The notes under the pieces were generated by a model, which was given only the letters and a program-made list of their open reading frames with translations, made no database searches and had not been told where the DNA came from. From a virus (taxonomy: Duplodnaviria > Caudoviricetes), in the IMG/VR virus record IMGVR_UViG_3300042556_002360, positions 1 through 56,976 of that record: a DNA stretch of 56,976 nt. The stretch is one strand, 5' to 3'. Position numbers and translations under genes: made by a program. Positions 16,274 to 55,428 of the stretch are shown here, piece after piece (the stretch's first letter is position 1; the number at the start of each line of letters is the position of its first letter).

Positions 16274-16876
16274 ATGGTAAAAACTATTAATAAAACATCA
16301 CCAAAAGTCCTTGGACTTGACGTGTCAACTAAAACTATTGGATGGTCGTTATTTGACATCCAAACTCAGCAATTACTTGAATTAACGCACGTTTCCCCAG
16401 TACCCAAACCAAAAGTTGAAAATAAGATTGAAGAACTCATTCTTAAGAGTCGTATTTTCAGAGAAAAATTAGAATTATATGTGGGTATGGGAATAACTAA
16501 TGTGGTTATTGAAGAACCATTATTAAATTCAAATAACGTATATACGGTTGGAACTTTAATGAGATTTAATACGTTAGTATGTAAAGAGGTTTACGATATT
16601 CTTGGTGTCGCACCTGAATTTATTTCAACATACAATTCAAGAAAATTTGCATTCCCCCACCTTGTTCAACAAAACGATAAAGGAAAATTCGTTTTATTTG
16701 GTGGACTTCCAAAAGATACTGATAAAAAGGTAATTATTTGGGAATTGGTTGCAAAGAGAGAACCTCAGATTGTTTGGGGATACACAAAAAACAATACACT
16801 CAAGAAAGAAAATTATGATATGACCGATGCTTATACCTGTGCTTTGGGGTATATGAAATCAATATCTGTTTGGTAA
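16274..16876 (+). CDS. ruvC: RuvC-like Holliday junction resolvase
   Basis: VLGLD..TIGW, VVIEE, DMTDA catalytic pattern. Confidence 0.75.
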   Translation: MVKTINKTSPKVLGLDVSTKTIGWSLFDIQTQQLLELTHVSPVPKPKVENKIEELILKSRIFREKLELYVGMGITNVVIEEPLLNSNNVYTVGTLMRFNTLVCKEVYDILGVAPEFISTYNSRKFAFPHLVQQNDKGKFVLFGGLPKDTDKKVIIWELVAKREPQIVWGYTKNNTLKKENYDMTDAYTCALGYMKSISVW

Positions 16877-49015: not shown

Positions 49016-49795
49016 ATGGGTAGAAAAAAGAAAATAGTATTCAAATTAAGCCCCGAATGGATGTTAAAAGAACCATTGGACTTTGAATATAACAAATACA
49101 CTTTGTTGGACTACATACAGAAGTGCGAAAAAAATCTCGATAATTTTGAAATATATCCTGACTTCGTTGAGTTATCATTACACTTGGCGAACATGCAATC
49201 CTTGTATAAGGAGAACACATTACTTTTAACGAATAAGAAGTTCGAATCTTGCGATGACGAGATTATGATAAAGGATTTGTATCCAAAAAAACCTCGTGAA
49301 ATGTCTAAAGACGAGGAAGAAGAGCTCCAAAAAACATTGAAGTTTTCAAATACCAAACTATTCGACACCTTTAACTTTGCAAAATCAATATGGGATATTG
49401 CATTTAATAGTGTGGAGCTCTCAATCAAAAAAAATAAAGGGGCGATAATATCTGGAATGGGATATGTTTTCTATTATAGAAAATCGGAGAATAAAGTTTA
49501 TGTGTGGGAATACCAGATAAAGAAAAACAGGAAAAATCCCACAACCAACAAAACACAAATTAATAAAATATTTGAAGATGCTCCTGATGACGTAACATTA
49601 ACATCAATCATAGAAAACAATTCATCCTTTAAGAAACACGACTATTATAAGGGTTTACCAATATTTGAAATGAATTGCACCCAAGACCTTCCAATGGAAC
49701 AAACCACTATTCCAATAATGAAAAGGAAGATTACTTCATATATTTTTCAAACAATTAACTTGGTAAAGACAAAAAATTTTGATTCTAATTTATAA
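49016..49795 (+). CDS. Hypothetical protein
   Basis: 259-aa ORF. Confidence 0.75.
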   Translation: MGRKKKIVFKLSPEWMLKEPLDFEYNKYTLLDYIQKCEKNLDNFEIYPDFVELSLHLANMQSLYKENTLLLTNKKFESCDDEIMIKDLYPKKPREMSKDEEEELQKTLKFSNTKLFDTFNFAKSIWDIAFNSVELSIKKNKGAIISGMGYVFYYRKSENKVYVWEYQIKKNRKNPTTNKTQINKIFEDAPDDVTLTSIIENNSSFKKHDYYKGLPIFEMNCTQDLPMEQTTIPIMKRKITSYIFQTINLVKTKNFDSNL

Positions 49796-49809
49796 TTTGA
49801 TTATCTTTG
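49778..49809 (+). promoter_or_regulatory. Bacteroidota-type sigmaA promoter
   Basis: TTTG at 49778, TATCTTTG at 49802. Confidence 0.6.
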
Positions 49810-49815
49810 CCTCAA

Positions 49816-53347: not shown

Positions 53348-53695
53348 TTAGAATAGGTACTCAACGGTATCACCAGCCTCAATGCCTAAATTTTCACAGG
53401 AATTACCTGCCAACTCTAATACAATATTCCCGTTACCGCAGTAACTACCACAATTATCTCCTTGACACGGAGGACAATTATGGTGAATATTAACGATTAC
53501 ATTATTTTTGATTATTATAATATCCAAATTTTGAATACAATTTTTCATCCAAAAACACTGCTTATTTCCACCCATTAAAAACAATAAACCATTGAAAGTT
53601 TCATCAAACTTTTTACCCATCATACCAATATATTTTGATTTTTCATCAACGAGAGTTTTGACATTAAAGACATTTTGATTGATTTTAACTTTCAT
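53348..53695 (-). CDS. DUF192-family protein
   Basis: GMM..GLLF..FWMKN..LDIII..VLEL..GIEAGD. Confidence 0.8.
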   Translation of the reverse strand: MKVKINQNVFNVKTLVDEKSKYIGMMGKKFDETFNGLLFLMGGNKQCFWMKNCIQNLDIIIIKNNVIVNIHHNCPPCQGDNCGSYCGNGNIVLELAGNSCENLGIEAGDTVEYLF

Positions 53696-53824
53696 TATCT
53701 ATAAATATAATGATATTATGAACTTTTTTATAAAAAAATAATAAAAAAGTTTGACTTTTGGTAATTTGTGTTATATTTATAGTTTCTTGTCCTTAAAAGA
53801 CAAAAAAACACACCCCACCATAAA

Positions 53825-54376
53825 GTTTTACAAAATAAATTTGACTAAATGAGAATTTGGTTGTACCTTTGTAAAACAATTGAGATGAACGTCTCAAAAA
53901 ACCTAAGACGAGAGTCTTAAAAAAAATGTCCCACAGATTTGACTATTTGAAAAAATATGATTAAGTTTGTGGGACTTAATCTGAAAGTTCTTAAAAATAT
54001 TAATACATCGCAAGTTAGAGTAGAGGACAAACTCATTGGGCTCATAACCCAAGGTTCCGCAAGGGACACGTCAGGTTCGAATCCTGCACTTGCAACAAAT
54101 CGGAGCACGATAAGATGATATATAAGGAGTGCTTAACCCATACACTGATAACTTCAGCTATAAGGTTTCCAGCGAGTCATCTTAAAAAAAAAACTTCACA
54201 AAAAGTTTGACAAATCAAAAAGTTTGTATTACCTTTGTGAAACAATTAAGGAGAACAGTAAAAATGTACCTGAAGTAAGACGAAGTAATTCGTAATAACC
54301 AAAAGGTTTGTAATCCTGAAAAAAAAGTTTACAAAAAAGTTTGACAAATTGAAAAGTTTATCTTACCTTTGTAGAC
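53825..54376 (+). promoter_or_regulatory. Four tandem sigmaA-type promoters (TTTGAC-N18-TAnnTTTG), each enclosed by an inverted repeat
   Basis: TTTGAC at 53840, 53938, 54206, 54340 and TAnnTTTG at 53864, 53962, 54230, 54364. Confidence 0.8.
54009..54095 (+). tRNA. tRNA-Met(CAT), initiator type, with long variable arm
   Basis: Acceptor CGCAAGT/ACTTGCA (C1:A72), D stem GAGT/ACTC, anticodon arm TTGGG-CTCATAA-CCCAA, T loop TTCGAAT; CCA not encoded. Confidence 0.88.
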
Positions 54377-54437
54377 CAATCAAGAAAAGGTTAACGTTGT
54401 TGTAAAACTATGGTTCCCTTTTCTCAAATTGAAAATT

Positions 54438-54448
54438 CGTTCTTTGAA
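54438..54448 (+). promoter_or_regulatory. boxA-like antitermination element
   Basis: CGTTCTTTGAA following a hairpin, directly before the large RNA; similar AGTTCTTAAAAA at ~53986 before the tRNA. Confidence 0.5.
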
Positions 54449-54449
54449 T

Positions 54450-55352
54450 ATAAGATATTTATCCATTCAACGGATAGTAACCCCACAAAACTCTTAGGAG
54501 TCTCCAAGGTTAACTTGATGTTGATAAAGTAAATCGGCCGTATATGGTCGTTAAATAAACCACGAAAGTGGGATAAAGTGAATCTGTTGTGTTAACAGGT
54601 TTGCGGTTTGTAAAGTCTTAGGACCTTATGAACTCAAGTATACAAGCGAGATATCATCTTTGCTTTAGTAACCGAGGGTAACACTGTAGGAGAAGAGTTG
54701 AGGTGACCAAGCGATGTGGGTCGTTTGGTTGAGGTGGGAACACCAATAAGAATAACTCGTAGGAACTCTGTAAGAACTGTAACTTCCAATTACACAATTG
54801 CGGCTTCCAATACGATAGTGGACTTAAAACCGAAAGGTATGATTTTGTACAGGTGGTGCTGTTATTATCCCTACTTTGAATCTACCAAGGTTCATCGTTT
54901 GAAGTAAACTTGGCATATGGAGATGGGGACATTTCAAGGAGTAGTTTAGTATTCTGTTGTTCAAAAGATAACGGAGCTTAAGGTGGACCACTACTTCTAA
55001 CATCCACGACACAAAACTTAATATTACACTGTTAATGTAAAAATTAATTAAAAAATAATAAGCAAAAGTGTCCATCAGGTTTTGATGAAAGTTGCCTACA
55101 CAGTCACGGGTTGTCCGTGGCACGAGAGAACCGCAAGTTTAATCGTATTTTTACCAAAGACCTCTAAGGAGTCGAATCCTGAGTCAGTTCGCAAGATTGA
55201 AGAGAGTTGAGTAATAAAAGAGTAGTTGAAACCTCAAGGAGTGATTGGTCTAACCAATCGGCAATGAGTGGTATTCCTCAAAAGGGAATGGATACGAGGG
55301 GAACCCATAATACCTCAAAAGTCACTTACAAAAACTTGTAATCTCAGAGTTT
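54450..55352 (+). ncRNA. Large (~900 nt) structured non-coding RNA, possibly GOLLD-like; ends approximate
   Basis: No credible ORF, raised GC, many stems with G-U pairs and GNRA loops; bounded by promoters and a terminator; adjacent to a tRNA. Confidence 0.7.
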
Positions 55353-55373
55353 TTTAGCCAACTATGAAAAACT

Positions 55374-55410
55374 AAATTCCCCGCCCCTAAAAAGGTGGGG
55401 TTTTTTATTT
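55374..55410 (+). terminator. Intrinsic terminator closing the RNA locus
   Basis: TCCCGCC..GGTGGGG stem followed by TTTTTTATTT. Confidence 0.7.
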
Positions 55411-55428
55411 TATAGTATATTTATAACT

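Follow-up and report, generated by a model that had tools for sequence, protein, structure and literature searches.

The DNA studied here, referred to as the window, comprises all 56,976 nucleotides (nt) of the IMG/VR virus record IMGVR_UViG_3300042556_002360 and has 32.7% G+C. Its positions 53,751–55,400 form a single non-coding unit that holds five tandem promoters, short structured RNAs, a methionine transfer RNA (tRNA-Met), the GOLLD RNA and a terminator at the end. By folding, it was found that each of the four promoters in this array that match the exact promoter pattern is at the same time an imperfect hairpin of 47–53 nt, which spans the whole promoter. Comparison of related loci showed that both stems of the hairpin were kept in relatives through compensatory changes. 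In the literature searched, most subscription journals lying outside it, neither promoter-hairpins at GOLLD loci nor such inverted repeats with TAnnTTTG were found described.

The literature on Bacteroides and Flavobacterium gives the Bacteroidota sigmaA-type consensus as TTTG at -33 and TAnnTTTG at -7, about 19–21 nt apart. The four exact sites of the window agreed with this pattern, with a TTTG to TAnnTTTG spacing of 20 nt. An earlier inspection of the letters alone (the sequence-only reading) had proposed that four units share TTTGAC-N18-TAnnTTTG, and four copies were indeed present in the window (53840, 53938, 54206 and 54340), each of them on the + strand and within the array. Only 0.13 copies were expected by shuffling, and 0 of 100 shuffled sequences reached four. 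The TTTG/TAnnTTTG pattern also preceded open reading frames (ORFs) in the window and in relatives. The four units, U1 to U4, are as follows.

53825..53877, + strand: promoter-hairpin U1, with outer stem 53825–53834/53868–53877, inner stem 53842–53850/53855–53863 and a GAGA loop.
53928..53975, + strand: promoter-hairpin U2, upstream of the tRNA, nearly continuous, with a GAAA loop.
54195..54241, + strand: promoter-hairpin U3, with the inverted repeat I12 as arms and a 6-nt loop.
54327..54376, + strand: promoter-hairpin U4, immediately 5' of GOLLD, with a GAAA loop.

In the sequence-only reading, each unit was described as a promoter with two complementary arms. All four arm pairs were recovered (I7 with 10/10 pairs, I6, I12 with 8/8, and 9 base pairs (bp) including one T.G in U4), but the supposed 33-nt loop between the arms was itself paired, so that arms and spacer made up one long imperfect hairpin. 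The outer stem of 8–13 bp joins the flank upstream of the -33 box with TTTG of the -7 box and about six further bases, to about +2. Inside it lie one or two more pairs and then a T.T 2 × 2 internal loop, in which the TT of the -33 box stands opposite the TT preceding the A of the -7 box. The inner stem of 5–9 bp is formed by GAC of the -33 box together with the spacer, and the hairpin loop, which is CCCA in some relatives, falls at the spacer centre. An A-run was observed immediately 5' of U2, U3 and U4 on the + strand (A8, A10 and A8, respectively).

For U1, U2, U3 and U4, respectively, folding energies (dG) of -13.7, -22.7, -11.5 and -11.6 kcal/mol were predicted; the corresponding z-scores were -2.9, -6.6, -2.7 and -2.1, and the scores against model R1 were 51.8, 53.9, 49.3 and 49.6 bits. 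The z-scores of four other promoters in the window were -1.3, -0.7, -1.75 and +0.1. When 53785–54440 was folded as one 656-nt read-through RNA, the four hairpins appeared as separate local domains in both the minimum free energy (MFE) and the centroid structure, and small hairpins, a tRNA cloverleaf and two structured modules were found between them; the z-score of this fold was -7.1 (20 shuffles).

Helices of at least 8 bp between the upstream flank and the -7/+1 region were found at 66 of the 162 distinct promoter-pattern sites in the window and 80 related loci, whereas shuffled flanks gave 134 of 3240 (4.1%). Arms were thus not equally frequent around shuffled promoters. The sequence-only reading had also held that the isolated promoters at 16869, 18941 and 49778 lack arms. 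This was borne out for the first two, where nothing comparable was seen, as was also the case for another control promoter, 56794; but the promoter at 49778 showed an 8-bp helix in its MFE structure. The latter promoter (49762–49811) lies between the end of one ORF and the start of another, and its helix GGTAAAGA/TCTTTGCC pairs the upstream flank with the -7 box in a geometry similar to that of the array units. It could be a weak version of the array arrangement, or chance.

Related loci were collected by a protein search of IMG/VR with the neighbouring DUF192 protein, which gave 117 related stretches, of which 80 were kept; with a second neighbouring protein (90 amino acids) as anchor, just one related locus was obtained. 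Many relatives kept the order DUF192 gene, promoters, tRNA-Met and GOLLD, and by nhmmer the 5' homology of GOLLD in relatives began just after the last promoter (U4). Promoters of the sigmaA type start transcription a few nt past the -7 box, and for U4 this homology boundary is indirect support of such a start. Aligning related loci for compensatory changes was the check that had been suggested in advance, and the arms proved to be both conserved and covarying. The outer arms were seen in the states GTCCCA/TGGGAC, GTCTCA/TGAGAC, GTCCTA/TAGGAC and CCCCA/TGGGG, and also as GTTTCA/TGAAAC, GTTTTA/TAAAAC, CTTA/TAAG and CGC/GCG, and the spacer stem as AAAAT/ATTTT, TATTT/AAATA, TGTTT/AAACA, ATAGT/ACTAT and ACAGT/ACTGT.

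The share of paired cells in three alignments was compared with the share after shuffling and with the partner slid out of register. In the ungapped alignment A3 (19 distinct rows), for which rows were pre-selected at no fewer than 8/10 pairs in the outer stem while the inner stem was unselected, 83.9% was paired, compared with 75.2 ± 1.1% after shuffling (reached by 0 of 500 shuffles) and 41–54% with a slid partner. In A4, a covariance-model fit of 78 distinct rows that leans towards the structure used for fitting, the values were 84.6%, 75.5% (0/500) and 38–51%. In A2, a plain unfitted MAFFT alignment of 111 distinct rows in which the outer arm was often out of register, they were 63.8%, 59.6% (0/500) and 40–56%.

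In A3, 9 of the 20 pairs changed on both sides; this was reached by 68 of 500 shuffles, so the pair count alone was unremarkable. No shuffle attained the observed total of changed cells (39; 13.7 after shuffling) or the covariation score. In A4, 15 of the 20 pairs changed on both sides (1/500 shuffles), with 159 cells against 64.5; the alignment rows being related by descent, these pair-count figures are not probabilities. For the inner stem in fixed register and unfitted, 455 Watson-Crick cells were counted, compared with 343 by shuffling and 212–278 in slid registers. Compensatory changes have thus kept both stems in relatives. One clade retained the hairpin despite the drift of its -33 box to ACGGAC.

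The genomic context of the hairpins was assessed in an independent IMG/VR sample, selected by the promoter and a TGARAA spacer motif with no arm required, which gave 80 loci among the matches listed; the counts that follow hold among these matches. Of the distinct units that adjoin GOLLD homology or have a tRNA downstream, 19 of 41 had at least 9/10 arm pairs in the defined geometry, compared with 0 of 29 units preceding an ORF and 2 of 16 with neither context. The null frequency was 4.3%, and the context contrast had a Fisher p of 4.5e-6, although the units were not independent. By a looser measure, any helix of at least 8 bp, the contrast was weaker (21/41 vs 5/29), and two of the five ORF-context units with such a helix shared a similar geometry. 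The context favours RNA as the level at which the pairing acts: the hairpins occur at promoters that are sure to be read through into structural RNA which is not translated, and are absent from those preceding ORFs.

A relative sharing the locus is a complete genome of 321,139 nt with terminal repeats present. In this genome the exact promoter pattern occurred 37 times, compared with 10 times for a reversed control pattern. Matches to the model at E < 0.001 were confined to the GOLLD array and to a second array at ∼181.8–182.1 kb, and there was one weak ORF-context match (L098:7270–7327, 27.5 bits, E 0.004). Seven of the 34 non-array promoter-pattern sites reached k ≥ 8 in wider windows. These helices had other geometries, and generic helix length was replaced by the fixed-geometry test. 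Two GOLLD phages of 630–640 kb also had promoter-like units with paired spacers before tRNAs and GOLLD, with poorer outer stems.

The second array of the complete relative (G001 ∼181.5–182.1 kb; L095:1500–2140, - strand) opens with a promoter, a short RNA and a hairpin-promoter with 9-bp arms. These are followed by a tRNA-like element (Rfam tRNA, 24.6 bits, sub-threshold), a promoter, ∼300 nt of non-coding sequence and a G+C-rich terminator; the ∼300-nt RNA matched no Rfam family at E ≤ 1. The same genome carries 23 tRNA genes on one strand at 134,989–140,972. Since this block lies far from the GOLLD array, the tRNA-Met next to GOLLD represents an additional copy at a site of its own.

A TGAAAA-like motif ∼10 nt after the -33 TTTG was observed to recur in promoter-like sites of many unrelated IMG/VR contigs, including sites before ORFs, and may be an extra promoter element of phages or hosts. 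In one such locus (L167:60–583), three tandem copies came with a perfect 8-bp spacer hairpin.

The window has a CheckV completeness of 19%, which at 56,976 nt makes it a fragment of a jumbo phage of roughly 300 kb. No convincing ORF was found at 53,696–55,428 in the window ORF list. The array at 53,751–55,400 was regarded as one stable-RNA transcription unit of a Bacteroidota-infecting jumbo phage with host-type promoters, and besides U1 to U4 the locus has the following features.

53348..53695, - strand: DUF192 gene (Pfam PF02643, E 6e-18), divergent from the array; synteny anchor for the relatives.
53751..53782, + strand: U0, the first and weaker promoter-like site, with TTTGAC at 53751 and TATTTATA at 53775–53782; it is without the hairpin architecture of the later units.
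53880..53919, + strand: Module 1, two small hairpins at 53880–53897 and 53904–53919, then A8 (global fold).
54009..54096, + strand: tRNA-Met (CAT), 88 nt (ARAGORN; Rfam RF00005, 43.3 bits).
54100..54183, + strand: Module 2, a structured RNA with closing stem 54112–54119/54176–54183 (I11), then A10 (global fold).
54249..54317, + strand: Module 3, a structured RNA of 69 nt, then A8 (global fold).
54377..55350, + strand: GOLLD RNA, with a 5' variable domain (54377–54936) assigned by homology and a 3' domain (54937–55350) by Rfam.
55379 to 55400–55410, + strand: intrinsic-terminator-like site, with a 7-bp stem of which 6 are G-C pairs, and a T-rich tail.

The GOLLD assignment rests on a match to RF02032 of 321 bits (E 3.4e-91; gathering score 150) over the full model, 1–416. 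The terminator scan found no + strand terminator-like site in the array before 55379, so that the array has five promoters, four exact and one weaker, and one terminator. U0 had been suspected in the sequence-only reading as a weaker fifth unit, and it does exist; model R1 did not match it at E ≤ 10. It carries other repeats: between the DUF192 gene and the array, at 53699–53782, two perfect AT-only inverted repeats surround this first promoter-like site, one with 12-bp arms 60 nt apart (I3, 53699–53710/53771–53782, 12/12) and one with 11-bp arms 9 nt apart (I5, 53721–53731/53741–53751, 11/11). The hairpin architecture was likewise absent from the promoter that opens the second array of the complete relative.

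Several further details of the modules were observed. The tRNA-Met is 88 nt long in the window and 73–75 nt in most relatives, and in its predicted fold both the D region and the variable region contain additional pairing. In some relatives ARAGORN reported no tRNA, yet a tRNA-like sequence with a CAT anticodon was visible (L014). At the start of Module 3 (54247–54277), AAGGAG is followed ten nt on by ATG-TAC-CTG-AAG-TAA, a four-codon mini-ORF with a Shine-Dalgarno-like box; this arrangement is atypical of Bacteroidota and may have arisen by chance. An alternative partner for the U4 5' arm (54328–54341) lies in the GOLLD 5' leader at 54393–54406 (I4, 12/14 complementary). With two possible partners, a choice between them is possible in the read-through RNA.

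In metatranscriptomes of freshwater, wetland and sediment (four studies), RNA contigs covered 54535–55300 at depths of tens to thousands. Many variant letters were seen in the GOLLD contigs, implying that several related phages were present. Contigs crossed promoter units in three of four runs (X1, X2 and X7; three studies), at a depth below that of the GOLLD core, which in these runs was tens to thousands. One 413-nt contig with a depth of 29 ran from Module 2 through a promoter unit into the 5' end of GOLLD. At no less than 88% likeness there was no depth on 53650–54062 or 54417–54475, from which no conclusion was drawn. In run X2, one contig joined 54251 to 54320 and so lacked Module 3, as would result from recombination between U3 and U4 in a relative, and at the same junction place a contig of run X7 "goes back 135".

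The function we infer for the promoter-hairpins is that of an RNA stem-loop in read-through transcripts, which would insulate, protect or mark processing between the RNA modules; our confidence in it falls slightly short of even. At the DNA level, the five stacked host-type promoters with one terminator would raise the output of the downstream RNAs. Given five promoters and one terminator, transcripts from the upstream promoters would traverse every downstream promoter, and in this read-through RNA each internal promoter would fold into its hairpin of 47–53 nt. The hairpin would hide ∼50 nt of AU-rich, otherwise single-stranded sequence, which would neither mispair with its neighbours nor lie exposed as a target, and the small RNAs, the tRNA-Met and GOLLD could thereby fold independently. 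It would also provide a stem-loop at or near the 3' end of the upstream module without stopping the polymerase, and/or an endonuclease signal for a cut separating the modules. The size of the hairpin and its layout of lower stem, internal loop and upper stem resemble, by analogy, the sites of ribonuclease III (RNase III). Substrate hairpins of this enzyme have about two helical turns of largely paired RNA, in many cases with an internal loop where they are cut; the predicted stems total about 18–22 pairs, interrupted by small loops, and are compatible with such a site, not specific for it. The proposal in the sequence-only reading that read-through transcripts fold each downstream promoter into a processing signal or insulator agrees with the anatomy, with five promoters and one terminator, hairpins that survive the 656-nt fold and contigs that cross the units.

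Several observations weigh against this interpretation. One clade had merely a short, shifted stem, ACAAAGG/TCTTTGT. Among the matches listed, 22 of the 41 units in stable-RNA context stayed below 9/10 arm pairs. Promoter function, and not RNA, may be what sets the GAAA or GAGA loop, as TGAAAA-like spacers recur in ORF promoters. At least 9/10 pairs were found in 13 of 28 first promoters and in 38 of 63 later ones, a comparison that is confounded. The RNA data consist of contigs, which show no ends and may include DNA carry-over. No RNase III was found to be encoded in the window or in the complete relative, and such cleavage would therefore need a host enzyme. To these are added the outcomes of two tests of the paired strand. 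Raw counts of G.U against A.C were 42 vs 12 at internal positions of the outer stem, 79 vs 34 in the inner stem and 112 vs 51 in A4, but the G.U excess lay mostly at pairs opposite fixed promoter bases, where the fixed partner allows only the wobble-forming change. At the six outer, unconstrained pairs there were 10 G.U and 11 A.C, and at the spacer pairs 42 and 26 (A4). In 84 of 114 units, and in 35 of 47 clusters, the + strand gave the more stable fold, a result that did not change without tetraloop bonuses; control promoters, however, showed the same + strand bias (34/39 and 29/30).

Both tests were accordingly rejected as evidence for RNA. For G.U against A.C, the six outer pairs were even and shuffling of the inner stem itself expected 96 vs 48; the strand asymmetry in MFE was a composition effect, being equal in the controls. 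This also removed the earlier argument that the mismatches of the arms are G-U compatible on the + strand and hence favour RNA. In U2, the mismatched base faces a -7 box T that promoter function holds constant, and the mismatch therefore carries little information on RNA versus DNA. A hairpin-free first promoter was likewise tried as a prediction and given up, since the test was confounded: the high-scoring "firsts" were mostly at the U1-type position, these units being counted as first where the exact pattern missed the true first site, which deviates from it. Sixteen leftmost sites upstream of a U1-type unit scored 6–8, with one at 9, and these sites were mutually related.

That the pairing acts in RNA, and not in DNA, is what we tentatively infer. 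A structure acting in DNA, by cruciform extrusion or as a folded non-template strand, with an activity tied to supercoiling or to upstream traffic, was considered unlikely, though worth serious weighing. Since the pairing spans the whole promoter with a 4-nt loop, the objection of a 33-nt loop has gone, compensatory change is equally expected for DNA pairing, and the wobble and strand tests do not favour RNA. However, the stems are AT-rich, with T.T 2 × 2 loops and asymmetric bulges, features that generally disfavour cruciform extrusion and that RNA tolerates better. The restriction to stable-RNA arrays (0/29 ORF promoters among the matches listed) has no obvious reason at the DNA level, and the hairpin was kept where the -33 box had drifted.

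The pairing could also be a functionless by-product, left behind when a quasi-palindromic promoter cassette was duplicated or when template switching corrected one arm against the other. The units within the array are clearly paralogous (D1–D3, D6 and D7), and one RNA contig apparently lacked the U3–U4 stretch, as if units had recombined. Yet orthologous units in diverged phages, whose anchor protein is 69–88% identical, paired through different arm sequences; the pairing was absent from sequence-matched ORF promoters among the matches listed; and wobbles and mismatches persisted, which repeated correction would tend to erase. Such an origin without function was therefore judged distinctly unlikely.

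On the - strand, the T8–T10 run that follows the hairpin in three of the four window units (U2, U3 and U4) raised the idea of an element that works both ways, as a promoter for the + strand and, for the - strand, as an intrinsic terminator that would shield the array and the DUF192 gene from antisense transcription. An A-run of at least 6 within 12 nt of the 5' arm was present in 46 of 93 related units, that is, in about half of them, but 10 of 30 ORF-context promoters had one too, so that the A-run was rejected as a hallmark of the units. The scan found no - strand terminator, under rules that exclude AT-rich stems. Intrinsic terminators have a G+C-rich stem and a short loop with a U-run immediately after it, whereas the stems of the units are AT-rich. 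The ORFs of at least 60 amino acids to the right of the array were all on the + strand up to the window end, with no antisense source visible, and four successive terminators inside the array would be redundant. We regard this two-way role as improbable.

Two readings take the hairpins to be released. In one, held to be highly improbable, the element would be dual-coded, a strong host promoter as DNA, and as RNA excised hairpins of ∼50 nt displaying the -33 and -7 boxes would act in trans, being decoys for the host RNA polymerase holoenzyme, or adaptors that would tie the co-transcribed tRNA-Met and small modules to the GOLLD nanocage. In the other, which seems scarcely probable, ∼50-nt small RNAs would be 6S-like mimics that bind host RNA polymerase-sigmaA, or would dock on the GOLLD cage. 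A stable hairpin, made in four copies next to GOLLD, does carry the -33 and -7 sequences in or beside its internal loops, and passages of one report describe GOLLD as a 14-mer cage whose cargo is unknown (10.1101/2024.12.08.627333). The conservation of the boxes, however, is already explained by promoter function, and no evidence was found for a released species of ∼50 nt. 6S RNA is about 180 nt long, with a large central bubble between long helices, whereas the units are ∼50 nt with only small internal loops, and they matched no Rfam family at E ≤ 5. Nothing was thus found in support of the 6S-like titration of sigma factor that the sequence-only reading had offered. Barely credible, finally, is that the arms are protein sites, either operators of a dimeric regulator or the inverted repeats of an invertible Bacteroides-type promoter: inverted repeats do flank the promoter, and the papers found on TAnnTTTG with inverted repeats mostly concern invertible promoters and DNA inversions in Bacteroides, but the arms vary between units and covary, which suits pairing over recognition by one protein, they are only about 33 bp apart, and in the relatives searched the units shared one orientation relative to GOLLD, three opposite-strand hits excepted (two adjacent in L065/L066, the third being the antisense of a sense hit at a far lower score). 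An invertible promoter occurs in both orientations, between conserved inverted repeats to which a recombinase binds.

Read as RNA stem-loops between modules, the hairpins have counterparts in several known systems. Intergenic processing or insulating stem-loops are known in phages and in stable-RNA operons; it is unusual here that the promoter itself forms the stem-loop. The R sites of phage T7 are RNase III processing hairpins in polycistronic transcripts, several of them next to phage promoters, which separate neighbouring RNAs and after cleavage leave a protective 3' stem-loop. As in the present array, they are intergenic hairpins of ∼50–60 nt in phage read-through RNA, in which an internal loop divides a lower from an upper stem. 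In T7, however, the hairpin lies beside or downstream of the promoter, whereas here the promoter itself is the hairpin and is whole only in read-through RNA. The T7 products are mRNAs, while those here are stable RNAs, and the cleavage proposed here would take place in a phage without its own RNase III. Bacterial ribosomal RNA and tRNA operons similarly have stacked strong promoters, and covarying stems that flank or separate the mature RNAs and guide their maturation, but those stems enclose the mature RNA and not a promoter, and the tandem promoters are found only at the operon head.

Two further comparisons are instructive. Hairpin or cruciform promoters, among them those of the phage N4 virion RNA polymerase and cruciforms that are extruded under supercoiling and switch a promoter, also consist of self-complementary promoter DNA in which structure is conserved over stem sequence. 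In contrast to the present units, which carry full host-type -33 and -7 boxes and a long imperfect stem, the N4 hairpins have stems of 5–7 bp with 3-nt loops, form on the template strand and serve a phage polymerase. Engineered RNA insulators, i.e. hairpins and self-cleaving ribozymes such as RiboJ that are inserted between a promoter and its gene, share the proposed function of making the downstream RNA independent of the upstream one. Insulators of the RiboJ type are man-made and placed downstream of the start, whereas the element described here occurs in nature and overlaps with the promoter.

Among the non-coding RNAs of bacteria, GOLLD is one of the largest, and the locus and its relatives show how it is expressed in lake phages, namely from the end of a host-type promoter stack with one terminator, co-transcribed with tRNA-Met and several small structured RNAs. 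In passages of the report cited above (10.1101/2024.12.08.627333), GOLLD assembles into a 14-mer cage of unknown function, and its genes lie near tRNAs; the env-38 example given there, located downstream of a Met-tRNA, matches the arrangement of the window locus. The promoter-hairpins predict the true 5' end of GOLLD and its precursors, and indicate candidate RNAs that are made together with it. They also represent a clear natural case of one sequence under two constraints, those of DNA promoter boxes and of base pairing, a double constraint limited to promoters that lie within transcribed stretches leading into structural RNA. Should the pairing act in RNA, tandem genes for non-coding RNAs would have in these hairpins natural parts for insulation or processing.

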